Shown here: piece by piece, positions 22,744 to 46,836 of the stretch | Position numbering within the stretch: the stretch's first letter is position 1 | Layout: each line of letters opens with the position of its first letter | Virus record (IMG/VR): IMGVR_UViG_3300028830_000309 | Source: a virus | DNA length: 64,000 nucleotides | Reading direction: 5' to 3' (one strand) | Program-made: the position numbers and the translations under genes | The notes under the pieces: model-generated | Seen by the model: the letters and a program-made list of their open reading frames with translations, nothing else | Told to the model about the DNA's origin: nothing | The model's database searches: none

Positions 22744-22796
22744 AGCGTTGACCGCTGGGCCTCCAGACGTGACGCTCGGAGAGAACCACCATCCCC

Positions 22797-24266
22797 ATGG
22801 CCGCAGACCCCACGCTGAAGCAGGTCCTCGCACAGCGCCACCCGCTCTACGACGAGTTCTCCGCTGACTGGCAGTTCTTCCTGGACTCCTACCTCGGCGG
22901 AACGAACTACACACGCGGCGGCAGCTACCTGTTCAGCCACGACCGAGAGGATCCGAAGCGCTTCGCCGCCCGCCTGAACAGGGCCGTCTTCAACAACTAC
23001 ACGCGGAAGGTCGTCGACATCTACAAGTCGTTCATCTATCGGCAGCCGATCCTGCGGACGAGCGACGACGAGAAGATCAACCTGTTCCTCTCCGACGCTG
23101 ACCGCCAGGGGCACAGCTTCGACCGCGTCATGTCGGAGTCAGTCGCGAAGCTCGCCTTCACGATGGGCCACGTCGTGGTGCTCGTGGACCTGAACAAGCG
23201 CACGGAGGGTGACGCGCTCAGCCGCGCCGACGAGCAGGACAAGCAAATCAGCCCGTACATCTCGGTCTACGCGCCGACGAACGTTATGGACTGGTCGCTC
23301 AACGCCGACGGCTCCTACCGCTGGATTCGCCTGCAGGAGCCCGCCCCCGACACGTCGAACCCCTACACCGTCCGCGGCAAGGCCGGGCCGCGCTACCGCA
23401 TCTGGACGGAGAGCGACTGGCGGCTCTACGACGAGGATGGCGTGCAGGTCGACGGCGGCCCGAACACCATCGGCCGCGTCCCTGCGGAGCGCATCGCCCC
23501 GCTCGACCATCCGGTGAAGAGCGAGCTGGGCCTGTCCATCGTCTCGGACATCGCACCGCTCAACCGCTCGATCTACAACTACCGGTCGCTGCTCGACGAG
23601 TTCCTGTACCTGCAGTGCTTCAACGTCATGGCGATCCCCATCCCCGGCGATCCGAAGGCCGTGGACACGGTGAAGAAGCTCGTCTCCACGCTCGGTACGA
23701 GCACCGGCGTCTTCTTCGACCCGACGAAGGGCGGCGCGCCGTCGTACCTCAGCCCGCCCATGCCGCCGGCGGACTTCCTGCTGCGCATGATCGAGTCGTC
23801 TGCGAAGGAGATCATCGACCTGGCGAAGCTGCAGGATCGCTCGGCGTCTGCGAAGGGCGAGAGCGGCATGGCCCGCGCCTACGAGTTCATCGAGGCCGAG
23901 GCCGTCTTCTCCTCCATCGCCCGCAACCTGGAGGACGGCGAGCGCCGCATCCTGAATCTGGTGAACCTCTGGGGTGATGACTCGTCCACGATCGACACGG
24001 TCCCCGTCACGACCGAGTACCCGGACAGCTTCAGCGTGACCGACTTCAACCAGGAGATCGAGAACACCCTGAGTCTGCTCACGATGGACATCTCGGACAC
24101 GTTCAACCAGAAGCTGAAGGAGCAGATCGTGAAGCAGGCCCTCCCGTCCCTGGAGGACGCGGATGAGGAGACGATCTTCGCGGAGATCGCGGCGAAGGTC
24201 GGCCAGGGCGGCCTCCTCGTGAAGGAGATCCAGACCCACCTCAAGGACGCCGAGGCGACACGGTGA
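22797..24266 (+). CDS. Portal protein
   Basis: 489 aa directly after TerL. N-terminal HPLY...RLNRAVFNNYTRKVVD and a portal-typical ESGMARAYEF. Confidence 0.85.
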   Translation: MAADPTLKQVLAQRHPLYDEFSADWQFFLDSYLGGTNYTRGGSYLFSHDREDPKRFAARLNRAVFNNYTRKVVDIYKSFIYRQPILRTSDDEKINLFLSDADRQGHSFDRVMSESVAKLAFTMGHVVVLVDLNKRTEGDALSRADEQDKQISPYISVYAPTNVMDWSLNADGSYRWIRLQEPAPDTSNPYTVRGKAGPRYRIWTESDWRLYDEDGVQVDGGPNTIGRVPAERIAPLDHPVKSELGLSIVSDIAPLNRSIYNYRSLLDEFLYLQCFNVMAIPIPGDPKAVDTVKKLVSTLGTSTGVFFDPTKGGAPSYLSPPMPPADFLLRMIESSAKEIIDLAKLQDRSASAKGESGMARAYEFIEAEAVFSSIARNLEDGERRILNLVNLWGDDSSTIDTVPVTTEYPDSFSVTDFNQEIENTLSLLTMDISDTFNQKLKEQIVKQALPSLEDADEETIFAEIAAKVGQGGLLVKEIQTHLKDAEATR

Positions 24267-24314
24267 ACGTGAACGCGACACCGCCCGCCGCGGCCCCCAT
24301 GACCACCCCTCCGA

Positions 24315-24584
24315 ATGCCGCTCCGACCCCGCAGCCGTGACTACCGGCTCCGCACGCTCGCGACCTACGTCGAGCAGGAAGCCGCTGCGGATGACGCCGT
24401 GCGCGCGACGCAGGACGGGCTGATCGCCGAGCTGACCACCAAGCCCATCACGACCCGTTCACTCGCGGGCTTGCTCGAGAAGTTGGACGCGCTGCTCGAC
24501 CAGCAGGAGGCCGAGATCCTGGCCGCGGTCGAGACCGCCCTGACCCGGAGCGCGAAGGCCACGGCTGACCATGCCACGCCGTGA
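24315..24584 (+). CDS. Hypothetical helical protein (possible N-terminal part of the minor head protein)
   Basis: 89 aa; GTGA overlap with the next gene. Confidence 0.55.
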   Translation: MPLRPRSRDYRLRTLATYVEQEAAADDAVRATQDGLIAELTTKPITTRSLAGLLEKLDALLDQQEAEILAAVETALTRSAKATADHATP

Positions 24585-25306
24585 GGACGAGCCGCGTCAT
24601 CGCGGACCTCGTCGGGAAGGCCATGCGCACCCGGTACGCCGGTGCGACGATCGCCGAGCGCGTGAAGCTCATCACCGGCCGGCAGAAGGAGCAGATGCGG
24701 GCCATCCTCGTGCGCGGCCTCCGGAAGGGCGCGGACCAAGAGGCGATGGTTCGCCAGGTCCTGCGCTTCTACAAAGGCGTGGACGGCTACGGTGGACCGG
24801 CCGCGATGGCTCGCCGCCTGGTGGTGTCCGAGACGACGCGCTTCAACGGCCGCGTCGCAGAGGAGATCGGCGCGCAGGTGTACGAGGACACCGGACGCAT
24901 CCCGATCTACACGTACCAGACGCAGCAAGACGAGCTCGTGCGGGATGAGCACGCCGCGGCTCAAGACGAGGAGTTCACGGACGACGACCTGGCCGAGGAG
25001 CTGGAGATGCGGCCCGTCTCGGAGGCGCAGGACCTCCTCTCCGAAGTGAACTGCCGGTGCTGGCTCGACATCTCGTACCTGTCACCAAGCGAGGAGATGG
25101 CGGCACGGAACGGAGACAGCGCGCCGAAGGGTGAGAAGGTCGAGCGCGCTGCCAGCCCTCGGGAGAGCACGGCGAGGGCTGCGGACTTCGACAACGCCAC
25201 CGACCGCAAGGCAGCCCTCGCCGGGATCATCGAGAAGGCGCTGAACGGCGGCGCTGGTGGGCAGGACATTGCCGCCCTGGCCACGAAGTTCTACGGCCCG
25301 CAGTGA
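24581..25306 (+). CDS. Minor head protein, MuF/SPP1 gp7-like
   Basis: RRLVVSETTRF, DELVRDEH, NCRCWL; located after the portal gene. Confidence 0.75.
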   Translation: MRTSRVIADLVGKAMRTRYAGATIAERVKLITGRQKEQMRAILVRGLRKGADQEAMVRQVLRFYKGVDGYGGPAAMARRLVVSETTRFNGRVAEEIGAQVYEDTGRIPIYTYQTQQDELVRDEHAAAQDEEFTDDDLAEELEMRPVSEAQDLLSEVNCRCWLDISYLSPSEEMAARNGDSAPKGEKVERAASPRESTARAADFDNATDRKAALAGIIEKALNGGAGGQDIAALATKFYGPQ

Positions 25307-25359
25307 CCGCTTGATCCGCGCGCCCCGACTCGCCACGATCCCATCACACCCCCCATCCA

Positions 25360-25638
25360 ATGTCCGACCCCACTAAGATCACAGCCCTTGTCTCCCTCGG
25401 TGACACCCTCTCCCAGGTCGAGGCGATCGCCGTTCGACAGGTCTCCCGGCAGCAACGGTCGGCCCTGAAGCAGCAGGAGGTCCTTCGGAGCTTCATTCGC
25501 TCGATGTTCCAGGACGTTTACCAGCGCACCGCCGCCAAGCTGGGAGGGAGCCGCGGTGGCACCCAGGAGCTACTCCTGGCCGTCCAAGACGCGGTCGCGG
25601 CGCGCGGCCCGAAGGAGATCGTCGCCGCGAAGGGATGA
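25360..25638 (+). CDS. Hypothetical protein
   Basis: 92 aa, phage-type leader, ATGA-coupled to the next gene. Confidence 0.55.
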   Translation: MSDPTKITALVSLGDTLSQVEAIAVRQVSRQQRSALKQQEVLRSFIRSMFQDVYQRTAAKLGGSRGGTQELLLAVQDAVAARGPKEIVAAKG

Positions 25639-26105
25639 CGAAGCTCGTCGCCCTGCGCCTCATCGAGCACTTGCGCTGGGCGCTCCTTCTGAGCACGGCA
25701 CACATCGACGTCTACTTCCTCGACTGCGCCGACGACGACAGCCACGCGATGATGGCGGTCATCGGTGCGAACGAGTGGATGTCCCGCTCCTCCTTCGAGC
25801 TGATGATCTACAAGCGCGCGATGGCGCTCAGCGACCACGACTTCTACCGGAGCCTCCTGCATGAGTTCGCCCACATCCTCACGATGCCGGACTTCAAGAC
25901 GATCCCCCCCGCGATGGAGGCGCACCTGCGACCGACCGAACGCGACGCGCTCGACAATTCGCTGAAGCACGCGAGCGAGGTCGTGGCCGAGACGCTCGCC
26001 GCGGTCTTCGCGGCCCTGCACCCGCTCCCGCGGGAGCTGTTGACGGAAAAGCAGCCACGTTTGAAGGTACGCACGACGACAGGTCGGCGACGTCGGGACC
26101 GTTGA
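25635..26105 (+). CDS. HEXXH-motif protein (putative zinc metallopeptidase-like)
   Basis: SLLHEFAHIL with downstream acidic helix EVVAETLA. Confidence 0.5.
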   Translation: MTKLVALRLIEHLRWALLLSTAHIDVYFLDCADDDSHAMMAVIGANEWMSRSSFELMIYKRAMALSDHDFYRSLLHEFAHILTMPDFKTIPPAMEAHLRPTERDALDNSLKHASEVVAETLAAVFAALHPLPRELLTEKQPRLKVRTTTGRRRRDR

Positions 26106-26225
26106 CACACCGGACGGCTGGGAAGACCAGCCGAGTACACCGACACCGACACACAACTGACTCGCAGCGGCAGGTACCTCGCTGCGCGCCGACGGGCGTA
26201 AAACGGCCACTCACACACCCCAACT

Positions 26226-27011
26226 ATGACGACCCCCAACACGGAGAACCACTCCGGCGCGGCTCCCCAGACGGACCCGCAGACACCCCCTGTGGTGGAA
26301 GACAAGGACAAGCAGGCTCCCGACGGGGAGAAAAAGACGGAAGCGGAGATCGCGGCTGATGCTGAACAGAAGCGGATTGATGCCATCGTGCAGGAGCGCG
26401 TCGCCCGCGAACAGAAGAAGCAGGCCGAACTCCAGAAGCAGAACGACGAGCTGGCCGCCTTCAAGCGACAGGCGGAAGAGGAGAAGGCCAAGCTCCAGGC
26501 CGAGAAAGAGGAACGCGAGAAGGCTCGACTCCTCGAGAAGGGCGAGTTCGAGAAGGTGATCGACATCGAGCGGAAGCAGCACATCGACACTGTGCAGAAG
26601 CTCAAGGACGAGATCGCCGCCGAGAAGCGCAAGAACGAGGAGTTCCAGCTCAAGGATCGCTCACGCACCATCGACGAGAAGCTCCGCGAAGCCTCGATCG
26701 ACGCGAAGAACGCCCAGCACCTGGCCCTGCTCCTCAAGGCCGACCACACGTTCACCGTCGACGACAACGGTCACCTCGTCATCGACGGAGACCCCACCCG
26801 CAGCCTGAAGGACCTCGTGTCGTCCTTCCTGGCGAACAACCCAGAGCTCGCGAAGGGCAAGTACGAGGGCAAGACGGGCTCCGGCTCGCAGACCCCACCC
26901 CCCGCAGGCTCCCAGACCTTCACCGCAGCCCAGATCAAGGACCCGGCCTTCTACAAGGCCAATCAGGCCGCGATCGACCTCGCCGCGAAGGAGGGACGCA
27001 TTACGCAGTAA
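26226..27011 (+). CDS. Capsid scaffolding protein
   Basis: Highly charged coiled coil, G/S/P-rich linker, C-terminal DLAAKEGRI; directly before the capsid gene. Confidence 0.8.
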   Translation: MTTPNTENHSGAAPQTDPQTPPVVEDKDKQAPDGEKKTEAEIAADAEQKRIDAIVQERVAREQKKQAELQKQNDELAAFKRQAEEEKAKLQAEKEEREKARLLEKGEFEKVIDIERKQHIDTVQKLKDEIAAEKRKNEEFQLKDRSRTIDEKLREASIDAKNAQHLALLLKADHTFTVDDNGHLVIDGDPTRSLKDLVSSFLANNPELAKGKYEGKTGSGSQTPPPAGSQTFTAAQIKDPAFYKANQAAIDLAAKEGRITQ

Positions 27012-27067
27012 CCGAGCGCTGAACGAGAGCGGGTGACCCCAATACCGACACACACCCCCAACCTACC

Positions 27068-27973
27068 GTGGCCAACACCACTTCCCTGACGACCGTTGCC
27101 AACTGGGTCGCGCAGACCTGGACCCAGAAGGCCCTGATCGCGCTCCAGAACAACCTCGTCCTCCCCGCCCTCGTGAACCGTGGCTGGGACCCCGTGCCCC
27201 GCAACAAGGGCGACACCATCAACATCCTCTCGCCGCTCTCAGTGACGGCGAACGCGAAGGCCGTGCAGACGGAGATCACCCTCCAGACGCCCACCTTCTC
27301 GAAGGTCCAGCTGGTGCTGAACAAGCACTACGAATCCTCCATCGCCGTGGAGGACGCCGCGAAGAGCCTGATGAACGACCCGACGATGCAGTCGTTCACC
27401 GACGCTGCGGTGAAGTCGATCGCCACGCAGATCGACGCTGACCTGATCGCCGAGGCGGCCAACTTCACCGGCACGGTGGAGGGCACGCAGGGCGTCGCCA
27501 TCACCCCGGCGAACCTGCGCGCAGCCGACAAGAAGCTGAACGACGCCAAGGCTCCCCTGCAGAACCGCGCCCTCGTGGTCGGCTCGCAGTCGAAGAGCGA
27601 CCTCCTGGGCCAGGCCATGTTCGTCCAGGCGGCCTCGATCGGGAACGGCAACGCCATCCAGACCGCGAAGCTCACCAGCCTGTTCGGCTTCGACGTCTAC
27701 CTGGACCAGGGCATCAGCCGCTCGGGCGGTGGCGACAAGAACATCGCCTTCGTCGGCGACGCGCTGGCCATCGGCATGGCCGAGATGTACAGCCCGTCCT
27801 CGGAGTTCAGCGGCGTGATCAGTGCCGTGGCCTCCGACGCCCAGACGGGCCTCGGCATCCGCTTCACCTCGAGCTGGAGCCAGAAGGACCTCGCCACGCT
27901 CATGACCTACGACGCGCTCTACGGCGTGAAGGTCGTCCGCGCGACGCTGGGCCTGTACGTGTACGGCGCCTGA
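27068..27973 (+). CDS. Major capsid protein (HK97 fold, P22-coat-like)
   Basis: 301 aa. LPALVNRGWD...KGDTINI, FGFDVYLD, YDALYGVKVVR; follows the scaffold gene. Confidence 0.9.
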   Translation: MANTTSLTTVANWVAQTWTQKALIALQNNLVLPALVNRGWDPVPRNKGDTINILSPLSVTANAKAVQTEITLQTPTFSKVQLVLNKHYESSIAVEDAAKSLMNDPTMQSFTDAAVKSIATQIDADLIAEAANFTGTVEGTQGVAITPANLRAADKKLNDAKAPLQNRALVVGSQSKSDLLGQAMFVQAASIGNGNAIQTAKLTSLFGFDVYLDQGISRSGGGDKNIAFVGDALAIGMAEMYSPSSEFSGVISAVASDAQTGLGIRFTSSWSQKDLATLMTYDALYGVKVVRATLGLYVYGA

Positions 27974-27990
27974 GTTCCTGGGATGGATCC

Positions 27991-28014
27991 GGGCGGGGAG
28001 GAGACTCCCCGCTC
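27991..28014 (+). terminator. GC-rich stem-loop after the capsid gene (no U-tract; terminator-like or stabilising)
   Basis: GGGCGGGGAG-GAGA-CTCCCCGCTC with a GNRA loop. Confidence 0.45.
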
Positions 28015-28048
28015 GTCCCGTCCCCGTCACTTCACCCACACCACCCAT

Positions 28049-28333
28049 ATGGAGACCGAGCAACAGCCCACGAAGATGCTGCGCCTGCGCAACGGCGGAG
28101 GCATCGAGTCGTGGCACACCGAGGCCGAGGCCGAGCACTACAAGGTCGTGAGCGAGAGCGGCACCAAGGACTGGGCCGCCGGCTGGACGTACCTAGGCTT
28201 CGTCGAGGTCACGGACGTGCGCAACGACAACTGCGACGCCCTCTGGGCGGAGAAGCAGAAGGAGACCGGGAAGAGCGCCGGGAGCGTCGGCGGCAACGAG
28301 ACGCCCGCGGAGAAGAAGGGGAAGGGCAAGTAG
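28049..28333 (+). CDS. Hypothetical protein
   Basis: ATG 28049 after a CACCACCCAT leader; Lys-rich tail typical of small post-capsid proteins. Confidence 0.6.
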   Translation: METEQQPTKMLRLRNGGGIESWHTEAEAEHYKVVSESGTKDWAAGWTYLGFVEVTDVRNDNCDALWAEKQKETGKSAGSVGGNETPAEKKGKGK

Positions 28334-28356
28334 CCCTTCCATCCCTTCCATGTGCC

Positions 28357-28680
28357 ATGCAGATCACTGAACGCTACGCGCGCGCCCTGCGCGCCATCCA
28401 CCCTCGCCTCGGCGTCCTCGTCCGGGCGCACTCGACGGACCCTCGCCGGCCCGTCGTTTGGGCGTGCTACCGCCTCGCTGAAGGCATGGACCTGAAGCTG
28501 ATCGCCCTGAGCGAGTTCAGCGAGTTCCCCGCGGGTCCCGACGGCTGGCTCCGGGGCGCGCTCGCGCGTTTCGGGTGGGAGGAGCAGGTCGCGAGCGCGA
28601 AGGCCGCCTACGGCGCCTCGACCCACCCCGCCGTCCGCCTCGGCCTCGACACCGCCACACACCTGACCCCACGAGCATGA
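28357..28680 (+). CDS. Hypothetical protein
   Basis: MQITERYARAL...; ATGA-coupled to the next gene. Confidence 0.5.
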   Translation: MQITERYARALRAIHPRLGVLVRAHSTDPRRPVVWACYRLAEGMDLKLIALSEFSEFPAGPDGWLRGALARFGWEEQVASAKAAYGASTHPAVRLGLDTATHLTPRA

Positions 28681-28913
28681 CCACCCCCGAGACGCCCGAC
28701 TCGAACCTCGCTGCCTACCTGATCTTCAAGGGGGTGTTCTTCACGTACCGCGTCGCGGATGAGCTCGGCCGTAAGCGCATCTTCTTCGGCTTTCCGAAGA
28801 TCACGTCCGAGAAGTTCCACGAGATCGAGCAGGAGTACCTCAACTCCGAGATGCAGGACTACGTCGACGCCCAGCGCAAGGTGAAGAACGTCGTCAGGAA
28901 CCTGGCGACCTAA
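28677..28913 (+). CDS. Small phage protein, DUF5659-like
   Basis: DSNLAAYLIFKG...FFGF...YVDAQRKVK resembles the DUF5659 pattern as recalled, not searched. Confidence 0.5.
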   Translation: MTTPETPDSNLAAYLIFKGVFFTYRVADELGRKRIFFGFPKITSEKFHEIEQEYLNSEMQDYVDAQRKVKNVVRNLAT

Positions 28914-28989
28914 GCCACTTATTTTCAATCGCTTGCGGAGACGTACGCCTCCACCACCGCGAGCGGATGATCCCCCGTGTGGATTCTCC

Positions 28990-29017
28990 TTGACGGATAC
29001 CGTACTGATGGTATCCT
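28990..29017 (+). promoter_or_regulatory. Sigma70-like promoter overlapped by a palindromic operator
   Basis: TTGACG-N16-TATCCT with TGn extension; GGATACC-N8-GGTATCC spans 28995-29016. Confidence 0.55.
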
Positions 29018-29311
29018 CATCATCGATGGATGGGATGTGGCACCAGCAGCATGCGACCTGGGGGAGACAGGACGTCCTCCTCATCGGGCGCAGCTCAGCC
29101 ACCCATCTGGAGGCGAAAGATGAAGGGAACACCACTGATCCGAGGACCGACTCGATTCGGCAGCTCATGGCCGTGATGGATTCCCGGTACCTCAAGGAGG
29201 AGAAGCGAAGTGAAACACGATGTGAACCAGAAGGCGCGCGCACCGCCCCATGCAACACCGCCGGCACGCCTCGACAGGCACCGCCAAGCTACAGAAATAA
29301 GGAAGACTTCA

Positions 29312-29563
29312 ATGACGAAAAAGTTTCAGTTTGTCGTGAACGAGCGGCTATCCGACACGCTCGAGACCCTGAAGACCAAGACCGGTCGGGACACGTACGC
29401 CGAGGTTCTGAGAGACGCCCTTCGCACCTACCTCTGGGTGGTCCAGGAGTACGAGAAGGGGAACGAGATCATCGCCAAGAACAGAGACCCGCAGACCTTC
29501 AACCCTTTCGCCGCCAACGTTGCGGTGCCTATCCGAACACCAGCCGTAACCACGCGCTCGTAG
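29312..29563 (+). CDS. Ribbon-helix-helix (CopG/Arc-like) DNA-binding protein
   Basis: MTKKFQFVVNERLSDTLETLKTKTGRDTYAEVLRDALRTY; purine-rich AAGGAAG upstream. Confidence 0.75.
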   Translation: MTKKFQFVVNERLSDTLETLKTKTGRDTYAEVLRDALRTYLWVVQEYEKGNEIIAKNRDPQTFNPFAANVAVPIRTPAVTTRS

Positions 29564-29618
29564 GGTCGACCACCGACCCTGCGGGCGCGAGCTCTCAGAG
29601 CACGAGGAGAACGCGCCC

Positions 29619-30149
29619 ATGCCCAACCAACAACCGGACTCGCCCCTAAGACGACTCCTAGACGACATCAAGACCTACACCCCCGACGCTGACCAACCGG
29701 AGCTCACCGACCTCCAGGAGGTCGTCCCACCGCTCGTCGATGCGGCGATCAGGCTCGACGACCAGGAGCGGCGCCGCGAGATGGTCGAAACCATCTTCCG
29801 GTGCGTCGCCGCGCTGACCGTGGCGGCGATGACCCTGCTCGCCTTCGTCCTGGTCGCTCCGGTGATCTGGAAAGGCTACGTCGTCCCGCCCTGGGTCCCC
29901 CAACTACTCGGGATGAGCGGCCTGCTCGGCATGATCGGCCTCGTCGTCCGGTTCCTCACCGGCCCGAAGGCGGCCGAGTGGATGTTCCCGTCCACGACGA
30001 CACCGAACCAGCACAACGGGAAGTCCGCTCGAGGACCTGCCATACCGTCCCGGAAGGTCAAGAGGAAGACCGGCGAGGTATCCCAACAGCTCCTGGAGGC
30101 AAAGACCTCGGGGAGTCCGCCGGGCTCGGCCATCAACAACGTCCCGTAA
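29619..30149 (+). CDS. Two-TM membrane protein (moron)
   Basis: SD GAGGAG; hydrophobic segments IFRCVAALTVAAMTLLAFVLVAPVIW and LLGMSGLLGMIGLVVRFL. Confidence 0.65.
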   Translation: MPNQQPDSPLRRLLDDIKTYTPDADQPELTDLQEVVPPLVDAAIRLDDQERRREMVETIFRCVAALTVAAMTLLAFVLVAPVIWKGYVVPPWVPQLLGMSGLLGMIGLVVRFLTGPKAAEWMFPSTTTPNQHNGKSARGPAIPSRKVKRKTGEVSQQLLEAKTSGSPPGSAINNVP

Positions 30150-30181
30150 GAAGGGTCGCCGATCCGCTACGAAACACCAGT

Positions 30182-30227
30182 CCGGACCGAGCCCGTCCGA
30201 CGCCCCTACTCGGAACGGGCGGTCCGG
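30182..30227. repeat. Long imperfect inverted repeat at the end of the moron
   Basis: CCGGACCG/CGGTCCGG, CCCGT/ACGGG and CCGA/TCGG nested stems. Confidence 0.6.
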
Positions 30228-30302
30228 GGTTTAGGAGGCCGTTGACCGTTCTTGCCACGCGCCTCACCCTCAGACCGAACCCCCACACCAACCCCTCCCC
30301 GC

Positions 30303-30734
30303 ATGGCTAACACCACCCAGGTCGAGAACCAGAAGGACGGGCAGCGCGTCTCGCCTGTCTGGCTGCCGTTCACCGTCACGTACGCCCAGCTCGCGACTGC
30401 TGGCCTCACGAACAACATCACGCTCTTCAACCTCGGCGCGAACGAGGTCATCCACGCCGTGAAGATCGAGCCCGTCGCCTCCTTTGCGGGTGGCGCAATC
30501 GCCACGTACACGCTCTCGGTCGGCATCACCGGCACGCTGGCGAAGTACGCCGCGGCCTACGACGTGCTCCAGGCGCCAGGCGCGACCGTCTTCCAGCTCT
30601 CGACGACCGTCGGCATGGAGAGCCTGACCGCTGCGACCGCCATCAAGGTAGCTGCCGTCTCGACGGTGGCGAACCTGAGCGCTGCCACGGCCGGCATCGC
30701 CACGATCTCGGTGCTCGTCTCCCAGGCCTTCTAG
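30303..30734 (+). CDS. Probable head decoration/spike-base protein
   Basis: ATG 30303; Ala/Thr/Val-rich beta-strand protein in the head module. Confidence 0.55.
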   Translation: MANTTQVENQKDGQRVSPVWLPFTVTYAQLATAGLTNNITLFNLGANEVIHAVKIEPVASFAGGAIATYTLSVGITGTLAKYAAAYDVLQAPGATVFQLSTTVGMESLTAATAIKVAAVSTVANLSAATAGIATISVLVSQAF

Positions 30735-30800
30735 GTCCGATCCGCTCACGGGGGGTGACGTCGCGTCGCCCCTCGGCCTGCGTACCGAACCACCCTCCCC

Positions 30801-31199: not shown

Positions 31200-31201
31200 C
31201 C

Positions 31202-32386: not shown

Positions 32387-32389
32387 TCC

Positions 32390-33571: not shown

Positions 33572-33574
33572 CCC

Positions 33575-34438: not shown

Positions 34439-34666
34439 ATGGCGCTCCCCACCGACAAGGCGTACATCAAGAACCCGAACCCCGATGGTCGCTCCGCTGA
34501 CGGCATCGGCATCGTCCCCAAGGGCGAGACCGTCGAGGTCACCGAGGCCCAGGCTGTCCTCCTCGCGGACGGCAACAACTTCGTGCGCGTTGACGGTCCT
34601 GCCGTCGCGTCGGAGAGTCAGGAGGACAAGCAGCCGACCAAGCGGCCCAAGACCCCCACCACCTGA
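34439..34666 (+). CDS. Small hypothetical protein preceding the tail tube
   Basis: 75 aa with phage-type leader. Confidence 0.55.
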   Translation: MALPTDKAYIKNPNPDGRSADGIGIVPKGETVEVTEAQAVLLADGNNFVRVDGPAVASESQEDKQPTKRPKTPTT

Positions 34667-34677
34667 CACACACCTGA

Positions 34678-35874
34678 ATGGCCTTCGGTTACAGCCAGCG
34701 CGGCTACGGCGCCATCATCAAGGAGAACACGGCCGGCACGGCCATCAAGCCGACCAACTACTTCAAGTTCGACACCGAGAGCATCGTCACCGGCTACGAG
34801 TCGGAGGTCCTCTCACCGGTGGCGAACACCCGCTCGCTCAACTACCAGATGGTGGCGGGTAAGAACGCCGCTCCGACGGGCACCATCTCCATGCCGGTGC
34901 AGATGCCGAGCATCGGGCACTTCCTCTCGGGCGCGTTCGGCAGTCCGACCACGACGGGCCCGACCGACAGCCTCTACACGCACGCCTTCGTCTCAACGGC
35001 GGCCGGCTCGATCCCGACCTACACGGTCGACATCGGCTACACCGACCAGCTCTGGGTGAACCGCTACGTGGGCGCCCGCTTCGGCGGGCTGAAGTTCACG
35101 CCGAACCAGCACAACGCCTGGTACTTCGACGCGACCCTCATGGCGCGGTACAGCTTCACCTCGGCGAAGCTCGCCGCAGGCACGACCGCTGGCGGCACCG
35201 CCCTCACGCTCGACTCCAACTACGGCCTCACCACCTCCGACAGCCTCATCCTCGGCGCCGGCACCGCGAACGAGGAGACCGTGACCATCTCGGCGGTGAA
35301 CGTGAACGGCATCGGCGTCACGTGCTCGATCACGGCGAACAACCACTCGGCGTCCGACCTGGTGCTCCTGAAGACCTCGACCCCCTCCTACTCGACGGCC
35401 ACCGACGCCTTCCAGTGGATGGGCGGCACGACCACGCAGATCGGTACGACGCTGGGCGGCGTGGCGACCGCGGCGATCTTCAAGGACTTCTCGCTCGACG
35501 TGTCCCAGGGCCTGGAGCCGATCTACGCGCCGAACGGCACGACGGACTTCTCCCGCTTCCCGATCGAGATCGTGGTCATGGGCTACGGCTCGACGGCCTC
35601 GATGCGCACGCACTTCACGAGCCGCCAGTACGACCAGTACATCAAGGACCGCCAGGACATCGCCGTGGACATCAGCTCGACCGGCAGCCTCGTGGGCGTC
35701 ACCTCGGTGGACACGTTCCAGCTGCAGATCCCGAAGCTCCGCATCGACCCGAGTGGCGTGAACCTCGGCGGCAACAAGACCCTGGAGCAGACCCTGGCGG
35801 GCAAGTGCGCCAACTCCGTGAGCGATGGCTTCGACATCAAGGCCATCATCAAGAACGCCACGGCCAGCTACTAA
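34678..35874 (+). CDS. Major tail (tube) protein with an internal inserted domain
   Basis: 398 aa; TYTVDIGY...NRYVGARFGGLKF tube pattern; followed by the chaperone and TMP genes. Confidence 0.8.
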   Translation: MAFGYSQRGYGAIIKENTAGTAIKPTNYFKFDTESIVTGYESEVLSPVANTRSLNYQMVAGKNAAPTGTISMPVQMPSIGHFLSGAFGSPTTTGPTDSLYTHAFVSTAAGSIPTYTVDIGYTDQLWVNRYVGARFGGLKFTPNQHNAWYFDATLMARYSFTSAKLAAGTTAGGTALTLDSNYGLTTSDSLILGAGTANEETVTISAVNVNGIGVTCSITANNHSASDLVLLKTSTPSYSTATDAFQWMGGTTTQIGTTLGGVATAAIFKDFSLDVSQGLEPIYAPNGTTDFSRFPIEIVVMGYGSTASMRTHFTSRQYDQYIKDRQDIAVDISSTGSLVGVTSVDTFQLQIPKLRIDPSGVNLGGNKTLEQTLAGKCANSVSDGFDIKAIIKNATASY

Positions 35875-36345: not shown

Positions 36346-36557
36346 AGCGCGACGACGCCCACCCGGTTATCGACGAGATGCGCATGGTGGAGAAGTTCGG
36401 CGTGGGCATCCTCAAACTCCCCGCCGAGAAGGTCCTCGCGTGGCGACGGGTCCTGATTGCCGAACACGAGAATACGAAGCACGCTAAGGTCACCGCTTCC
36501 AAAGAAGGTGCGATCGCGGCCCTGATGAAGAGCCAGCAGGCGGTGCACCGAACCTGA
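36315..36557 (+). other. -1 programmed frameshift site (C CCA AAA, 36315-36321) and gpT-like extension to 36557
   Basis: XXXYYYZ heptamer in the correct phase; the -1 frame (PKRLDLEEAVKR...) stays open to TGA at 36555-36557. Confidence 0.75.
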
Positions 36558-36566
36558 CACCCACCC

Positions 36567-37067: not shown

Positions 37068-37068
37068 C

Positions 37069-40000
37069 ATGGCTGGTATCGACGACACGATCAATTCGGG
37101 CGTGAACATCAACGTCAACGCGAGCGGGGGCCAGAGCGTCCAGCAGCTCGCGGCGCAGCTCGCGAACCTGAACGAGCAGATCGGCGGGGTCACCAAGAAG
37201 CTCAAGGACCAGGGCGCCCCCGCCGGTGATGTCCTGACGAAGACGGCCGCCCTGAAGAACGAGTCGGCGCTGGCTGGGGCCGCCCTCGGGCGCATGCAGG
37301 AGGCGGTTCAGCTTGGAATCAAGAACGAGAAGCTGTTCGCCAGCCAGACGGCGGAGGTCACGCAGCACTTGAAGGCAGCGAAGGCGGCGATCGATGCCGT
37401 CACGACGGCAGAGCGTGAGGAGAATGCTGCCGCGACGCAGGCTGCGGCCAACAAGAAGGCTGCGATCAACGACTGGAACGTTTACGTGGCCACGATGAAG
37501 CAGACGGCGGCCGCGGTGAAGAATCAAATCGACGCCGAGCGAGCGTGGGTCAACTCGCAGAAGAAGGCGGGAGACGGAACGAAGGCCCTCGCGAACGAGC
37601 TCAAGGGTCTCGTGCTGCAGTACATCGGCATCGCAGCCGCCATCAACTTCGTGAAGACCTCGTTCGAGTCGGCCATGCACTTCGACGAGCAGCTCGACAA
37701 GATCGCCGTCAGCTCGTCCCGCATGGGCGTCTCCTTCAAGGACGCCGGGGAGAAGCTACACGCCCTCGCGCTGAACACCTCGAAGACTGCCGGCTACGAC
37801 ATCAACGGTGTGGGCGGGAACCAGAGCATCTTCGACGAGTCGCAGATCCTGACCGGCCTCGAGAAGTTCCGCGACCGCGGCTTCGACGTCTTCCACATGA
37901 CGCAGGAGCAGCTGAAGCCCGTCCTCGACGCGGCGGTGGCGACGGTGCAGGACCTCGGCCAGGTCTCCGATGCGACGGCCATCGCCCTGCAGCAGTTCGG
38001 CATGTCGATCGAGGAGACCGGCACCGTGGCCGACGTCATGGTGAGCGCCTTCAAGGAGTCGGGCCTCACCGCGGAGGAGTTCGCGACGAGCGTCTCCGCC
38101 GCCGGCGCCGCGGCTCGCGCCTCCGGGACGGACCTCGCGGAGTACACGGCCGTCCTCGTCCGGCTGAAGCAGCTGGGCATCGAGAACGGTGCGCAGTTCC
38201 AGAAGCTGTTCTTCGCCGCGATCAACGCGCCTTCGGCGCAGCAGCTGAAGGCGTTCTCGGACGCTGGGGTGAGCCCCTACGTCTCGTCCAGCTCCTACGG
38301 GAAGGCGAGCGACCTGGCCGCCACCTCGGACATCGGCAACGCGGCGAAGATGGCCGAGAACCTGGGCTTCGATCGGATCGCGGACAGCCTCCAGAAGGCC
38401 CGCCTGGGCGCCGCCCAGTTCTTCGAGCAGTTCAACCGACCCGCGGCCGAGATGGCCGCCAACGTGGAGCGGGCGGTGCAGGAACTCGTCGACCTCCAGG
38501 CGGCCTTGGAGAAGGTCGACGGGCAGACGACGGTCTACACCACCCTCGTCACCTCTCTGAAGGGGGAGATCGACGGCCTGAAGGTCTCGCAGGCGGAGTG
38601 GAAGACGAAGCTGGACGAGACGACCAAGTCGCTCACCGACGTCACGAAGCAGATCGATGGGCTCACGAGCATTGCCCTCCCCGGCATGCACGAGATGGAC
38701 GTGGCGATCGAGCAGTCGGACCTCCGCGCCAAGGCGTTCCAGCTCCAGATGCTCCAGAACGCGGAGTCCACCCGCGCCTTCGAGCGCTCGATCCGCGACC
38801 TGAACGACCAGGTCCACGACCAGGAGCGCGCCACAGAGAGGATGCGCCGGAGCTACGAGGACGTGGGCGCCGCGCTGGAGAAGGCGAAGGGCAAGGCGTC
38901 CGGCCTCGAAGCGGCCCTGCAGAAGCTCCGGAACCCCGAGTTGGCCGGCGAGAGCGCTTTCGATGACAAGGCGTTCGGCATCAAGCAGCAGATCGACGCG
39001 CTGAACCTCCGGAAGTCGAAGCTGTCACCGATCGACCTCTTCGGCGCCAACCAGATCGACGCCCAGGTCGCGGCCCTCCAGAAGCAGCTGGAGCAGACCA
39101 ACCTTGAGAGGTCCCTGCAGTTCGACCCGCAGAAGCGTGCCATCGAGCAGGCGGCCCACGCGTCCGACATCCGGACCGGGAAGGCGACGGGCCCCACCAC
39201 GGAGGCGGACGCCATCTCGAGGATCGACCGCCTGACGGACCAGTACCTGAAGCAGGAGAAGCGGGTGAAGAGCCTGACGCGCGAGCACGACCTTGAGGCG
39301 CGGGCGATCCGGGACGCGGGGGACGCAACCCAGGCTCTGAAGGACAGGGTCGACGAGGTGACCGACGCCATGGATCGCGCGAAGCGGGCCACCCAGGATC
39401 AGACCGACGCCCTGAAGGACCTGCAGGACGCCACCACGAAGCTCAAGCTTGAGGAGGCGGTGAAGTACGGCCCCGACCAGCTCCGCATCAAGGAGGCCCA
39501 GTACCGCGCGAAGCAGGCGGTCGGGCTCACCCCTCAGGAGCAGTCCGCGGACTCGATCATCGGCAGCATCCCGGCGCTGGTGCAGCAGTACAAGGACCTC
39601 GCGAAGGAGCGCGACTTCGACCGTGCCCAGGTCATGAAGTACGACGACCAGATCCGGTCCAGCGAGGCCGTGCTGAAGATCTACCAGTCACGCCTCGACG
39701 ACTCGAAGGTGCACCACGAGCAGCTCACCGACGAGATCAAGCGTCAGGAGGAGCAGTTCGCCCGGATGCCGAAGGCGTACAAGAGCGAGATCGACATCCT
39801 GGACGAGCTGTCCGGCCACGTCCTGAACGCCGGTCTCGCCTACGACATGCTCGGGAAGCGCGGCGGCGGCGCCCTGGTCGCCCTCATCGGGCAGAACGGG
39901 GAGAACGCTGGGAAGCTCCAGGAGCTGGCGGACGTCATGGGCTCGCAGGGTGGCGCGGCGTCCTCGGCGAGCGAGGCGAGCAGCAGCCTGTTCGACGAAG

Positions 40001-40515
40001 CCCAGGCGGTGCGCGCGGCCTTCCACAACCTGCAGATCGAAGTGGGAACGGGCCTGGCCGACTCCATGGCGGGCCTGACCGGCGCCATCATCACCCTCAC
40101 CAACGCCATCCTCGGCAGCAAGGACATCCCGAAGAACATCACCGAGCACACGCCGATCGGCGGCCTGGCGTCCGGGGCCGGCAAGGCGTCGGTCGGCGAC
40201 TGGGGAGGCGCGGGGAAGGACTTCGGCCTCGTCCTCCTCGATCCGTTCAACCTCCGTTCCGTCTTCGGCCTCGCCTCCGGAGGCATCGTCCCGGGCCGAG
40301 GCTCCCGCGACACCGTGCCGGCGATGCTCACGCCTGGGGAGGAGGTGCTTCGTCGCGACGACCCGCGCCACCGCGCCAACGGCGGCGGCGTGACCGTCAT
40401 CCTGAACGGTGACGTCCACGTCAACCGCGAGCAGGATATGGACAGGCTCGTCGACAAGATCGACCGCAAGCTCGCGGAGCGCTTCACGAACCGACGCTAC
40501 GGCATGGCCGCCTGA
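37069..40515 (+). CDS. Tape measure protein
   Basis: 1148 aa, Ala/Gln/Lys-rich helical, TP901-like core; C-terminal GLASGGIVPG...DTVPAMLTPGEEVL. Confidence 0.9.
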   Translation: MAGIDDTINSGVNINVNASGGQSVQQLAAQLANLNEQIGGVTKKLKDQGAPAGDVLTKTAALKNESALAGAALGRMQEAVQLGIKNEKLFASQTAEVTQHLKAAKAAIDAVTTAEREENAAATQAAANKKAAINDWNVYVATMKQTAAAVKNQIDAERAWVNSQKKAGDGTKALANELKGLVLQYIGIAAAINFVKTSFESAMHFDEQLDKIAVSSSRMGVSFKDAGEKLHALALNTSKTAGYDINGVGGNQSIFDESQILTGLEKFRDRGFDVFHMTQEQLKPVLDAAVATVQDLGQVSDATAIALQQFGMSIEETGTVADVMVSAFKESGLTAEEFATSVSAAGAAARASGTDLAEYTAVLVRLKQLGIENGAQFQKLFFAAINAPSAQQLKAFSDAGVSPYVSSSSYGKASDLAATSDIGNAAKMAENLGFDRIADSLQKARLGAAQFFEQFNRPAAEMAANVERAVQELVDLQAALEKVDGQTTVYTTLVTSLKGEIDGLKVSQAEWKTKLDETTKSLTDVTKQIDGLTSIALPGMHEMDVAIEQSDLRAKAFQLQMLQNAESTRAFERSIRDLNDQVHDQERATERMRRSYEDVGAALEKAKGKASGLEAALQKLRNPELAGESAFDDKAFGIKQQIDALNLRKSKLSPIDLFGANQIDAQVAALQKQLEQTNLERSLQFDPQKRAIEQAAHASDIRTGKATGPTTEADAISRIDRLTDQYLKQEKRVKSLTREHDLEARAIRDAGDATQALKDRVDEVTDAMDRAKRATQDQTDALKDLQDATTKLKLEEAVKYGPDQLRIKEAQYRAKQAVGLTPQEQSADSIIGSIPALVQQYKDLAKERDFDRAQVMKYDDQIRSSEAVLKIYQSRLDDSKVHHEQLTDEIKRQEEQFARMPKAYKSEIDILDELSGHVLNAGLAYDMLGKRGGGALVALIGQNGENAGKLQELADVMGSQGGAASSASEASSSLFDEAQAVRAAFHNLQIEVGTGLADSMAGLTGAIITLTNAILGSKDIPKNITEHTPIGGLASGAGKASVGDWGGAGKDFGLVLLDPFNLRSVFGLASGGIVPGRGSRDTVPAMLTPGEEVLRRDDPRHRANGGGVTVILNGDVHVNREQDMDRLVDKIDRKLAERFTNRRYGMAA

Positions 40516-40524
40516 CACCCACCT

Positions 40525-43389: not shown

Positions 43390-43395
43390 CCGTGC

Positions 43396-44571
43396 ATGAA
43401 GTCGTACCTCTACCGCGTCTACAACGGCGGGAGCCTCGCGCAGACCTGGGGCGGGGACTCGATGTCCCAGGTGCCCGTCACGTCTGACCCGTCCTTCTCC
43501 GCCGAGGTCGACGGGGGCCTGTCTCCGCTCACCATCTCCCTCGCTCTCCCCTTCGACTACACGGGGACCGACCTCACGCTCGGGAACACCGTCGAGACCT
43601 GGTGCACGCGGGACGACGGCACGACGGCCATGCTCCACGCCGGGTTCCTCGAGACCATCGAGGACGACGTGTCCGACGGCGCCCAGGCCACGACGGTGAC
43701 CGTCACGCCCTACCTGAAGCAGCTGGGGAGCGACTACTTCCGCGACGACGACACAGGCACGACGATTGCCCACACGTGGACCTCGACCGACGTCTCCACG
43801 ATCCTCTCCACCATCATCTCGAAGTCCATCGTCCGGGCCGGGACCTTCTCGCGCGTCCATACGACCGCCTCGTCGATCCAGACCTCGGGGAAGACGATCA
43901 GCATCCAGGTCGGCTCCGAGACGTACCTCGACGCCATTCGACGCGTGAAGGGGATGGGACCCGGCGACTGGTACTGGTACGTCGATGCCGCAGGGGTCTT
44001 CTGGTACCGCAACTTCGACTCGGGCACGAAGCACGTCCTGACCCTTGGGAGGGAGATCAAGAGGCTGAGTCGGACGCAGGACATCCAGGAGCTGAAGAAC
44101 ACCGTCGACTTCTGGAACTCGGCGGACGCCCTCGACTCCGTCCTCGCCCTGGAGCGGCCAGCCGCGCTCTCCGCCTCGCAGACCGCCTACGGGCGCCGGG
44201 TCGAGCAGATCACCGACTCCCGCATCGACGACGCGGATACCGCCAAGAGCCTGGCGGACCGCTTCATCCGCGAGCGCGAGCAGCCGCTGGTCACCATCTC
44301 GGTGGATGTCCTCTCGGACGCGAACGACCCGCGGGGCTACGACATCGAGTCCATCAAGCCCGGTGATACGTGCGAGGTGCGGAACCTCCCATCGCTCGCC
44401 GGTCAGGCCCTCTCCATCACCCGCGTCGACTACCGCCCCGATGGAGTGAGCCTCACGCTCGCGAACGGCCCCGTGCACCGCTCCTGGTCGCTGGGAAAGC
44501 AACTCGAGGAGATGTACATCTACGTGAAGACCTTCCAGGACGGGTCGATCCCGACCGACACCAACGCCTAG
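43396..44571 (+). CDS. Baseplate hub / Tal-like protein
   Basis: 391 aa after Dit; DWYWYVDAAGVFWY, YGRRVEQITD, SIKPGDTCEV. Confidence 0.7.
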   Translation: MKSYLYRVYNGGSLAQTWGGDSMSQVPVTSDPSFSAEVDGGLSPLTISLALPFDYTGTDLTLGNTVETWCTRDDGTTAMLHAGFLETIEDDVSDGAQATTVTVTPYLKQLGSDYFRDDDTGTTIAHTWTSTDVSTILSTIISKSIVRAGTFSRVHTTASSIQTSGKTISIQVGSETYLDAIRRVKGMGPGDWYWYVDAAGVFWYRNFDSGTKHVLTLGREIKRLSRTQDIQELKNTVDFWNSADALDSVLALERPAALSASQTAYGRRVEQITDSRIDDADTAKSLADRFIREREQPLVTISVDVLSDANDPRGYDIESIKPGDTCEVRNLPSLAGQALSITRVDYRPDGVSLTLANGPVHRSWSLGKQLEEMYIYVKTFQDGSIPTDTNA

Positions 44572-44574
44572 CGA

Positions 44575-46479
44575 ATGCCAACCTCGAACGCAGTACGGTG
44601 GAACGGCCTCACGCCGTCGAACGCGGCCACGGCGCTGACCACGGCGAACATGGTTCCTCTCTCGAACGGAGACGGGACCGTGACGTGGACGGACGCCGCC
44701 TCGATCGGGGGTGGGGTGTCCACGGCCGTCATTCTCGCGCCCGCGACGTCCGCGCGGAACGTGGTCACCTCGACCTCGAACACCGCGGTGGAACTGACGC
44801 TGACGGCGAAGTCCGGGCAGACGGCGAACCTGTTCGAGGCGTACACGTCGGCGGCGGTGCAGCTGGTCACGCTGAACCGTATCGCGAGCGGGTACACGCT
44901 CACCGTGAATGCATTCAGCGGCGGCGTCGCGATCCTCGGCCAGCACATCGTCGGGACTGGGACCGGGGTGAACGGCGCCGTGGACGACGGGACGGGTGTG
45001 CTCGGCACCGTCGCGAACGTCGCCGCCTCCTCGTCCAGCGTCGCCGTGAAGGCGACCGCGAACGGTTCCGCCACCGGCTCCTACGCGGAGAGCTCCGGTG
45101 GCATCTCCGGGAAGTTCCGCAGCTCGGACGCCGGGAACACCGCGGCGACCGTCGTCATCCAGCAGAAGGGATCCTCCACGGCGCACCTCGCGAGCTTCCT
45201 CAGCAACGCCGGCGCCGAGATGTCCTACGTCGATTCTGTCGGAACCTACGTCGGCCCGGTGACCGCCCTCAAGAGCGCCACGACGAGCGTGAGCGTCTCG
45301 GCCGCCACCGCCCCGAGCATCGGCCAGGTGCTGACCGCTACGTCATCCACGACGGCCACCTGGCAGAACTCTGCAGCGTTCAGCCCGAACTACGCGAGCG
45401 TCTGGCACAACGGCGGCGTGACGTTCTACGGCACGCTCGGCGGCGCGAAGGCGGTCGCAGTGAGCGGGGATGAGATCGAAGTCCACCCGGGGACGTTCAA
45501 CGAGAACAACCTCCTCGTGAACGGGGTCAACTGGTACTTCCACCCGGGCGCCAAGGTCACCTACACCGGCGGCGGTACCGCGACCTGCGCAATCTTCGAC
45601 GACGGGACGAACGGCGCGAACACGGCCGTCACCTGCGTCATCGGAGGCGAGGGCCAGTTCACGAACACCTCGGGCGACATCCCGTGCGTCCTCCACGTGG
45701 AGAACGGGTCCCAGATCTCCCTCAACGCCGACCTGTGCGCCGGCACGAACCGCACGATCGACATCACGAACTCGGGGAACACCGCCGTCGTGTACGTGAA
45801 GAGCGCGAAGATCACCGAGACCTCCGGCAGCTACTCGGCCATCTACTACTCGGGTGGGAAGGTGCTCGACATCACCGCCGAACTAATCGCGAGCACAACC
45901 AACTACGGCACCGGGATCCTGGTGGCCGCAAACTCGCCCTCGAAGCTCGACGTGCGAGCCAACCGCATCTCGGCGCGCGGCATCTGCGTCTACCAGACGG
46001 GTACCGCCACAACGGGCATCCTCGTTTCAGGCGAGATCATCTCCGAGGATCGGGCCGTGATGCTCTCGGATGGATCCGTCACCATCCGCGCCTCGGCGAT
46101 CCTCTGCACCACCGACGACGAACACGCTCTGTACGTGAACGGGGGTGACCACACGGTAGACGTCCCGCTCATCTCGACGGTGGGGGCGACACACAACGGG
46201 ATGTACATTTCGGGCGGAACGCTCCGCCTCGCGAATGCCCGCGTGAAGAACACCGGTGCGAGCGGCGTGGCGGGTCAGGTTGCCGGCGGCACCTTCATCA
46301 CGATGGGAACGAACGCGTTCATCTCCGACTCCGGCGCCACCGACTCGCTCCTCTGCGCGTCTGCCGTCAACATCACGAACCTCGGCACGCTCTGCGGCAA
46401 CAAGGCGCTCAATCAGAGCGGAGGCGGCGCCGTCCTCGTGAACGCGACGACATTCTTCAGTGATGCGAACGTTGTGTAG
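44575..46479 (+). CDS. Tail fibre / receptor-binding protein with C-terminal beta-helix
   Basis: 634 aa, T/S/A/G-rich; C-terminal half homologous to 31202-32386. Confidence 0.75.
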   Translation: MPTSNAVRWNGLTPSNAATALTTANMVPLSNGDGTVTWTDAASIGGGVSTAVILAPATSARNVVTSTSNTAVELTLTAKSGQTANLFEAYTSAAVQLVTLNRIASGYTLTVNAFSGGVAILGQHIVGTGTGVNGAVDDGTGVLGTVANVAASSSSVAVKATANGSATGSYAESSGGISGKFRSSDAGNTAATVVIQQKGSSTAHLASFLSNAGAEMSYVDSVGTYVGPVTALKSATTSVSVSAATAPSIGQVLTATSSTTATWQNSAAFSPNYASVWHNGGVTFYGTLGGAKAVAVSGDEIEVHPGTFNENNLLVNGVNWYFHPGAKVTYTGGGTATCAIFDDGTNGANTAVTCVIGGEGQFTNTSGDIPCVLHVENGSQISLNADLCAGTNRTIDITNSGNTAVVYVKSAKITETSGSYSAIYYSGGKVLDITAELIASTTNYGTGILVAANSPSKLDVRANRISARGICVYQTGTATTGILVSGEIISEDRAVMLSDGSVTIRASAILCTTDDEHALYVNGGDHTVDVPLISTVGATHNGMYISGGTLRLANARVKNTGASGVAGQVAGGTFITMGTNAFISDSGATDSLLCASAVNITNLGTLCGNKALNQSGGGAVLVNATTFFSDANVV

Positions 46480-46484
46480 AGAGC

Positions 46485-46513
46485 TTGCACCGCCGCCCGC
46501 GCATCGCTACGTT
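46485..46513 (+). promoter_or_regulatory. Sigma70-like promoter upstream of the lysis cassette
   Basis: TTGCAC-N17-TACGTT, intergenic. Confidence 0.5.
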
Positions 46514-46536
46514 CCAGGTACCACCCCTCCACCGCC

Positions 46537-46836
46537 ATGCAGTACACCCAGCTCTCGACCGAGGAGCAGATCACCTACATCAAGAGCCGCATCAAGACGC
46601 TCGAGATGGACCACCTGGCCCACTCGATGCTCCTGGAGACGAACCGCAAGGGGCTCGAAGCCGAGACGGGGGACACGCCCGCCGCCGAGGAGGCGCGCCG
46701 CGGCTACCAGGTGAACATCGAGACCTGCGAGCGCACCCTCCGCGACTGCGAGGTTGGGATCACCCTGCTCAATGCCCGCCTCGCGGAGACCGAGCCGAAG
46801 GAGGCGCCCGCCCCGCCGTCGAAGCGCGGACGTTGA
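46537..46836 (+). CDS. Hypothetical coiled-coil protein
   Basis: 99 aa, typical small gene after tail fibres. Confidence 0.6.
   Translation: MQYTQLSTEEQITYIKSRIKTLEMDHLAHSMLLETNRKGLEAETGDTPAAEEARRGYQVNIETCERTLRDCEVGITLLNARLAETEPKEAPAPPSKRGR

Follow-up and report, generated by a model that had tools for sequence, protein, structure and literature searches.

The subject of this report is a 64,000-nt stretch of viral DNA (IMG/VR record IMGVR_UViG_3300028830_000309, referred to as the window) and the short leaders that precede its phage genes, which are unusually poor in G and rich in C and A. The window has a GC content of 63-72% throughout, and its genes are those of a tailed phage (terminase, head, tail, lysis and early arm). 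A Druantia-like defence island (a DEAD/MZB helicase of 1851 aa, plus neighbours) takes up the left 21 kb, while the phage core, in which G-free C/A-rich leaders predominate, occupies 21121-64000 with genes on both strands. The core includes, on the + strand, the large terminase (21121-22743, named from tblastn matches), the portal gene (22797-24266, with a weak SPP1_portal Pfam match just under the curated cut-off and portal-family tblastn matches), the scaffold gene (26226-27011), the major capsid gene (27068-27973, with a GTG start at 27068) and the tape-measure gene (37069-40515), followed by an Amidase_3 endolysin (47232-47975). The early arm on the minus strand encodes groES, groEL, a RuvC-like gene, a Rad52-like annealing protein and a dNMP kinase, and the only tRNA in the window is a tRNA-Met(CAT) (58717-58791, - strand). 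No Rfam families were found in the window, and no plasmid maintenance genes were seen within the window itself. DNA identical to the window lies on JGI and Logan metagenome contigs, the longest of 108 kb, and window DNA is also present in four runs, all from one bioreactor-metagenome study.

Genes were called with a codon-usage model blind to upstream sequence and compared with the JGI calls over 15-30 kb. The groEL start was corrected to the ATG at 55341, the upstream GTGs not being the start. The first caller performed poorly on foreign high-GC genomes and was replaced by a version trained on GC content at third codon positions (GC3). Over positions -18 to -1, core leaders contain A 0.22, C 0.46, G 0.17 and T 0.16, compared with a coding-strand G of 0.31. 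At most two G are present in 19/34 intergenic core leaders, compared with 3.0% of coding-strand 18-mers and only 1.2% of 18-mers preceding internal in-frame ATGs, an enrichment (binomial p ~1e-20) that holds against three internal backgrounds. For the 59 called core genes as a whole, 32 have at most three G in this stretch and 21 have a G-free run of at least 10 nt touching the start (3.3% at internal positions), with runs of at least 14 nt in 13 core genes (0.8% at internal positions). The depletion is local, G being ~30% at -60 to -25 and dropping to 12-19% at -15 to -1. The position matrix of core leaders gives G 0-12% and C 38-75% at -17 to -6, and this G-free zone coincides with the expected position of the Shine-Dalgarno (SD) sequence. 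The G-free tracts themselves consist of C 0.58, A 0.27 and T 0.15. The G-free leaders are a real feature of the phage core, far above chance.

A first-pass annotation of the window had quoted the leaders of several phage genes, and each was found directly upstream of its start. The portal leader (22779-22796, + strand, ...gaaccaccatcccc) lies in a 53-nt gap to the upstream gene. The scaffold leader (26208-26225, +, 1 G in 18 nt, gap 120 nt) reads tcacacaccccaact, one C longer than quoted, and the major capsid leader (27050-27067, +, gap 56 nt) has 0 G in 20 nt. Downstream on the same strand are the leaders of gene 28049-28333 (28031-28048, 0 G in 18 nt), gene 30303-30734 (30285-30302, 1 G in 18 nt, gap 153 nt), the 398-aa tail gene 34678-35874 (34660-34677, in which the sole two G lie in TGA triplets) and gene 46537-46836 (46519-46536). 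In the minus-strand early arm, the groEL leader (55342-55359, actacctacctcaccacc) provides a G-free tract of 20 nt before ATG 55341, the leader of groES (gene 55909-56205, leader 56206-56223) has 2 G in 18 nt and a gap of 137 nt, and the gene for the Rad52-like annealing protein (59646-60350) is preceded by a leader at 60351-60368. A G-poor, C-rich leader (18373-18390, +) also precedes a helix-turn-helix gene (18391-18756), a regulator-type gene inside the island.

Pairing with the ribosome was scored as the best duplex of positions -20 to -3 with the anti-SD CACCUCCUUA. The mean duplex energy is -1.6 kcal/mol at core starts, -3.5 kcal/mol at random internal sites and -5.6 kcal/mol in the island, and duplexes of -6 kcal/mol or lower occur at 17% of core starts compared with 15% of internal sites. 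The predicted minimum free energy of positions -25 to +20 is -6.6 kcal/mol at core starts compared with -11.9 kcal/mol internally (Mann-Whitney p 1.5e-13), and -11.2 kcal/mol at island starts. Start-like triplets are less frequent in the leaders (0.27 compared with 0.46 per 21 nt, p 0.02), a modest effect, and 45/59 leaders lack any extra start-like triplet.

The same kind of leader is found in four relatives of the phage, L187 (portal 68% identical, 67% GC), L189 (46% identical, 68% GC), a 90-kb record (L004/G707, 43% identical, 61% GC) and L188 (41% identical, 63% GC). All four have G-free, C-rich leaders at the portal, scaffold, capsid and downstream genes, with sequences unlike those of the window; the capsid leaders of the L187, L189 and L004 orthologues are G-free too, and differ in sequence. 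The tracts in L004 are C/T/A-rich and extend to early genes including DnaB (L206), and the ParB_N-domain gene in L189 has a G-poor leader. The record G707 (90.5 kb, loci L206-L209) is labelled a provirus by IMG/VR; it has no host flank at either end, its ends holding only mobile-element genes (DnaB, RVT_3, a methylase-helicase fusion, Replic_Relax, RadC and HTH).

More distant, lower-GC members of the portal family mostly use SD. The best matched control is a phage-plasmid of Methylobacterium oryzae (same portal family, 68% GC), whose leaders have G 0.37, with 1/27 G-poor and 17/27 SD-like, the latter including those of the capsid and one tail-region gene. In 27 high-GC Actinomycetota loci analysed with the same caller, leaders have G 0.34 and 3% are G-poor, and an Acidobacteriota phage with a related portal has AAGGA-type sites. 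The enrichment, which the first-pass annotation considered might vanish against a matched background, persists, since the Methylobacterium phage-plasmid and the Actinomycetota loci lack it. The G-free leaders are clade-wide and not a general high-GC trait. The earlier interpretation is supported in part: that the core genes are made for initiation without SD pairing is borne out by the weak anti-SD pairing, the presence of the trait across the clade and its absence from the leaders of an SD-using high-GC relative.

Alongside these, a minority of genes are led by SD. Clear sites lie before 9639, 16484, 20961 (- strand), 50720 (- strand) and 56343, and weaker ones before 4065, 29312 and 29619. 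Those with clear sites are the nuclease gene adjoining the DruE helicase (site region 9621-9638, +, gaaggaggg), the Mrr-like gene 16484-17680 (16466-16483, +, taaggaggg, with an anti-SD duplex of -12.5 kcal/mol), the 716-aa gene 18811-20961 (20962-20979, -, gaaggagc), the small gene 50433-50720 (50721-50738, -, gaaaggagga), which falls in the class that the first-pass annotation called morons, and the gene 56343-56846 (56325-56342, +, gcggaggag), an opposite-strand gene with a GC3 of 0.70. The contrast drawn earlier between phage and island leaders is borne out, the 11 island genes having G 0.35, a median of 7 G per 18 nt and one G-poor leader; the accompanying statement that island genes carry GGAGG is correct for several starts with a clear SD, while several other island genes lack one.

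Most of the window's SD-led genes have accessory or defence roles. An SD-like class of 12 genes, defined by a 4-mer criterion that takes in a few chance core matches (e.g. the portal gene), has a GC3 of 0.82 compared with 0.90 for the G-poor class (p 0.002), and fits core codon usage more poorly. The DruE-type helicase (4065-9620) is 73-80% identical to proteins in metagenome-assembled genomes (MAGs) labelled Desulforudis, Spirochaetota, Pseudomonadota, Dehalococcoidia and Aridibacter. A counterpart of the entire island is found in a MAG contig of 65.5% GC (L202), with 68-72% DNA identity over the aligning segments and G-rich leaders; the recurring genes are the 983-aa and 363-aa genes, the helicase, the PDDEXK nuclease, DruA and HATPase. 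SD-led genes in the relatives include an Mrr_cat gene in L187, gene 7870-8079 beside methylase/DUF499 genes in L188, gene 3365 in L189, and the methylase-helicase, RadC and HTH genes in L209, which differ from the window's set. SD-led genes are most simply explained, for the most part, as imported cassettes that keep their own SD, and simple import is favoured because the SD-like class has lower GC3 and the DruE island is spread across phyla. A 398-bp non-coding gap (28914-29311) between the head and tail modules is followed by the SD-led small genes at 29312 and 29619; it looks like a hot spot for accessory insertion, since L187 has a different, opposite-strand gene there (Mrr_cat).

Several approaches were used to place the phage in a host lineage, and none of them succeeded. 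The window has no nucleotide match in the phage collection, and relatives of its TerL, portal and capsid are only 25-29% identical and occur in phages of many phyla. A portal profile search of 185,579 species genomes found no relative, and against 401 Gemmatimonadota genomes it gave weak partial matches in 3. The idea that GroEL could identify the lineage did not hold, as the protein is 50-55% identical to those of Bacillota, Actinomycetota, Bacteroidota and every phylum sampled alike. The nearest relatives of the amidase are unnamed metagenome proteins, the only named one (36%) being from a Thermoanaerobaculia MAG whose chromosomal leaders do not match (0/17 G-poor in a fragment of 65% GC). 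With 37-45% identity to its Gemmatimonadota counterparts, the DnaB of the related phage was uninformative, and DruE was discarded as a host clue because it is promiscuous across phyla. Tetranucleotide correlation is highest with a Gemmatirosa plasmid (0.835), a weak clue, as all high-GC genomes score 0.7-0.8.

Gemmatimonadota are common in bioreactors. In a survey of SD usage, Bacteroidota and some Verrucomicrobiota are SD-scarce, and the high-GC classes with the lowest proportion of SD genes are Gemmatimonadetes (22%) and Fimbriimonadia (25%) (PMC10783764). Among the genomes that we sampled, low-GC Bacteroidota loci (31-33% GC) have 90-96% G-poor leaders, yet these are A/T-rich. The Bacteroidota genome G041 (66% GC) has 6-9% G-poor leaders, purine-rich leaders on its ribosomal-protein genes and an SD on groES. 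In G041, small genes just upstream of both groEL copies (L175 13590-13877 and L176 9469-9774, presumably groES) have strong SD sites (gaggagg and caggagg), and the adjoining groEL genes have SD-less A/C-rich leaders, an arrangement that recalls the SD kept on rpsU in Flavobacteria. SD usage is not clear in Salinibacter ruber pSR35 (58% GC), which has some C/A-rich G-poor leaders. High-GC genomes of the phylum Cyanobacteriota (60-62% GC) have 3-7% G-poor leaders and SD on 75-79% of genes in ribosomal-protein operons. The first-pass annotation had guessed at a host from the Candidate Phyla Radiation or from the Planctomycetota-Verrucomicrobiota-Chlamydiota group. The former is unlikely at 65% GC; the latter was compared with one plasmid, that of Opitutaceae TAV5 (53% GC), which by eye is SD-less and has 11/31 G-poor leaders.

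The closest leader pattern among the lineages tested is that of Gemmatimonadota. In sampled stretches of the Gemmatirosa kalamazoonensis chromosome (70-71% GC), leaders have C 0.40 and G 0.27 and 14% are G-poor; its ribosomal-protein operon (70% GC) has SD on packed genes, and the leaders of tuf, rpsJ, secY and adk have no clear SD and 1-4 G in 18 nt. A prophage-like region of the Gemmatirosa megaplasmid (with Phage_tube_2) has a block of C/T-rich G-free leaders near the tail-tube gene. This block lies in a stretch of NZ_CP007129 that apparently occurs in two copies ~53 kb apart (L186 1-26155 and L196 16997-43215, at ~1-26 and 53-79 kb of the record), the repeat being deduced from identical gene leaders and not from alignment. 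Genes in the repeated block have C/T-rich G-free leaders, and nearby head-completion genes have SD.

Taking these results together, we favour, with moderate confidence, a reading of the leaders as structure-free, G-excluded start regions that an SD-poor, high-GC host reads without SD through its native ribosomes, helped by coupling at short junctions. It starts from direct observations, namely the base composition of the leaders, their lack of complementarity to the anti-SD, the weak structure predicted for them, a clade-wide composition without sequence conservation, and absence from the SD-using high-GC relative. The G-free C/A-rich tracts would serve as the phage's translation initiation regions, working without SD pairing. 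At 65% GC, removal of G over ~10-20 nt before the start would be the surest way to single-strandedness, because C is left without a partner and U is scarce; the tract would also be free of competing starts, because ATG, GTG and TTG each contain G. The 30S subunit, probably via protein S1, would load onto the open tract, and the initiator tRNA would then select the start codon that comes first, this being the earliest start triplet with a G. Where genes lie close together, termination followed by reinitiation over a 1-13 nt spacer would contribute as well. We infer that the host ribosomes initiate efficiently without SD, and that the phage clade would be adapted to an SD-poor, high-GC host lineage.

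Some observations weigh against this reading. The phage's frequency of G-free leaders (~55%) is unmatched in any high-GC genome sampled. G-free leaders do not prove an SD-less host, because the host of the Gemmatirosa prophage uses SD on its ribosomal-protein genes. In addition, the gene starts come from our own simple caller, with JGI calls for 15-30 kb, and a few of them are wrong.

The proposed mode of initiation is a GC-rich variant of known SD-independent initiation, not a novel type of system. In Bacteroidia, SD-free initiation is tuned by the structure of the mRNA and by avoidance of AUG (PMC6847099, PMC7797042), and Flavobacterium johnsoniae has unstructured start regions with AUG avoidance (PMC6847099). 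The phage leaders resemble those of Bacteroidia (PMC6847099, PMC7797042, PMC9976891) in being SD-less, G-depleted and weakly structured, with extra starts avoided and a few strong SD sites kept. They differ in that the leaders of Bacteroidia are rich in A and U and favour A in a Kozak-like manner at -3, and also at -6, -12 and -13, whereas those of the phage are C-rich without such a preference (A is 28% at -3 and 9-38% elsewhere), and the ribosomal-protein leaders of the sampled 66% GC Bacteroidota genome are purine-rich and not C-rich. A local lack of structure is enough to allow translation where a ribosome-binding site is missing (PMC3121790, Scharff et al. 2011), and low structure around the start codon is likewise the main measurable feature of the phage leaders; however, the cases described there are individual SD-less genes of SD-using organisms and plastids, whereas the phage clade as a whole has it as its standard design, obtained by leaving out one base. 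The phage also shares features with the SSU5-like phage-plasmids (Salmonella SSU5 and plasmids of Klebsiella, Acinetobacter and Methylobacterium), including a portal that is 27-29% identical over >90% of its length and a size of 108 kb, as in the longest contig carrying the window, but the one member read (Methylobacterium, 68% GC) uses SD.

Work on SD-independent initiation has dealt almost exclusively with AT-rich lineages, whose leaders are simply A/U-rich. The phage clade may show an SD-independent solution at 65% GC, in which exclusion of G yields C-rich leaders. If so, a single-base exclusion rule could serve as an inexpensive indicator of host range for uncultured high-GC phages, could correct gene-calling programs built around SD motifs, and could guide expression design in GC-rich, SD-poor bacteria. 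The SD-led imported defence genes beside genes with G-free leaders offer a natural test of whether the host still uses SD.

Translational coupling alone, in which terminating ribosomes restart and leader composition is a by-product, is an unlikely explanation. Several G-free leaders are indeed 1-13 nt stop-to-start spacers (34439, 34678, 36567, 37069 and 40525), and the few G in short-spacer leaders mostly belong to TGA stops. The first-pass annotation had pointed to an identical 13-mer before two genes, and CCTGACACCCACC does occur exactly twice, at 36553-36565 (+), where it comprises the stop of gene 36378-36557 and an 8-nt G-free spacer before ATG 36567, and at 40511-40523 (+), where it comprises the stop of the tape-measure gene and a spacer before ATG 40525. 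Since its TGA ends the upstream gene in both copies, the 13-mer is a stop-spacer-start junction and not the free-standing motif that it had seemed, and the inclusion of a stop codon is in keeping with coupling. However, of the 26 ATG genes with gaps of at least 30 nt, 14 are nevertheless G-poor, including portal, scaffold, capsid, 30303 and groES, and neither G avoidance nor low structure would be expected from coupling.

It is quite improbable that the phage runs a two-tier programme, with SD-led genes translated by ordinary ribosomes in the carrier state and genes with G-free leaders translated preferentially after a ribosome change. The change would be brought about by the phage or by a host switch (e.g. 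anti-SD loss or sequestration, or a bS21-like switch as in Flavobacteria). The two sharply distinct leader classes in one genome, seen again in L187, L188, L189 and L209, are consistent with such a programme, and Flavobacterium ribosomes without bS21 gain SD reading (PMC9976891). The phage also carries an initiator-like tRNA. The acceptor stem of the window tRNA-Met is topped by an A1-C72 mismatch, and just two G-C pairs adjoin its anticodon loop; the tRNA is initiator-like yet atypical. One may speculate that an initiator tRNA supplied by the phage could favour SD-independent initiation. Against a ribosome change, the maintenance-type genes (HTH at 18391, ParB of L189 and DnaB of L206) have G-poor leaders, and simple import is indicated by the reduced GC3 of the SD-like genes and by the spread of the DruE island across phyla. 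In the scanned window proteins, Pfam detected no ribosomal protein, initiation factor or rRNA nuclease, nor did it detect bS21 in the 90-kb relative. That the leader classes form a built-in expression switch between two ribosome states, with the host hiding or exposing its anti-SD, is similarly doubtful; if true, the phage-plasmid would partition carrier-state and lytic-state synthesis at initiation, possibly aided by its own initiator-like tRNA. The evidence favours native host ribosomes over a phage-induced change, and unmodified ones in particular because the maintenance-type genes at 18391 and in L189 use the same leaders.

Still less credible is recognition of a specific sequence element (ACACCC/CACC), either through pairing with a G-rich part of the host rRNA or through binding by a protein of phage or host origin. 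Its attraction lies in the recurrence of the 13-mer, part of which is a stop codon, and in a modest over-representation of CAC, ACC, ACAC and CACC/CCAC relative to within-leader shuffles (z ~3). The core leaders have no positional consensus and no fixed position for such an element, C dominating every position, and the top "motifs" (CTGA and TGAC) are upstream stop codons. CCTCC is not enriched in the leaders (8 observed compared with 6.3 expected), the L004 tracts are C/T-rich, and orthologous leaders share composition and not sequence. The earlier proposal of an ACACCC-type motif bound by a factor is not supported by these results, and the G-free trait is one of composition, not motif.

An artefact of strand composition or mis-called starts is barely tenable: the coding strand is skewed (C>G, A>T) and the caller misplaced at least the groEL start, but coding-strand G is 0.31 with depletion limited to the last 15-20 nt, the independent JGI calls agree over 15-30 kb, starts that are the first start codon after an upstream in-frame stop show the same pattern, and control genomes put through the same caller lack it.

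The leaderless mRNAs of Actinomycetota and Deinococcota share the lack of SD with the phage genes, but most of the core genes are operon-internal and have leaders, and leaderless initiation is disfavoured for them because of this position. The sole candidate for a leaderless transcript may be gene 58180-58689, as judged from its upstream region (58094-58179), which contains TTGACG and TATCAT hexamers, the latter ending 6 nt before the ATG. Elsewhere in the core, a 538-bp stretch called non-coding within 49125-49998 is spanned by a minus-strand ORF of 288 aa (49125-49991), and the adjacent low-GC3 (0.72) call at 49125-49460 falls in the same ORF, which is probably a foreign gene missed by the codon model.

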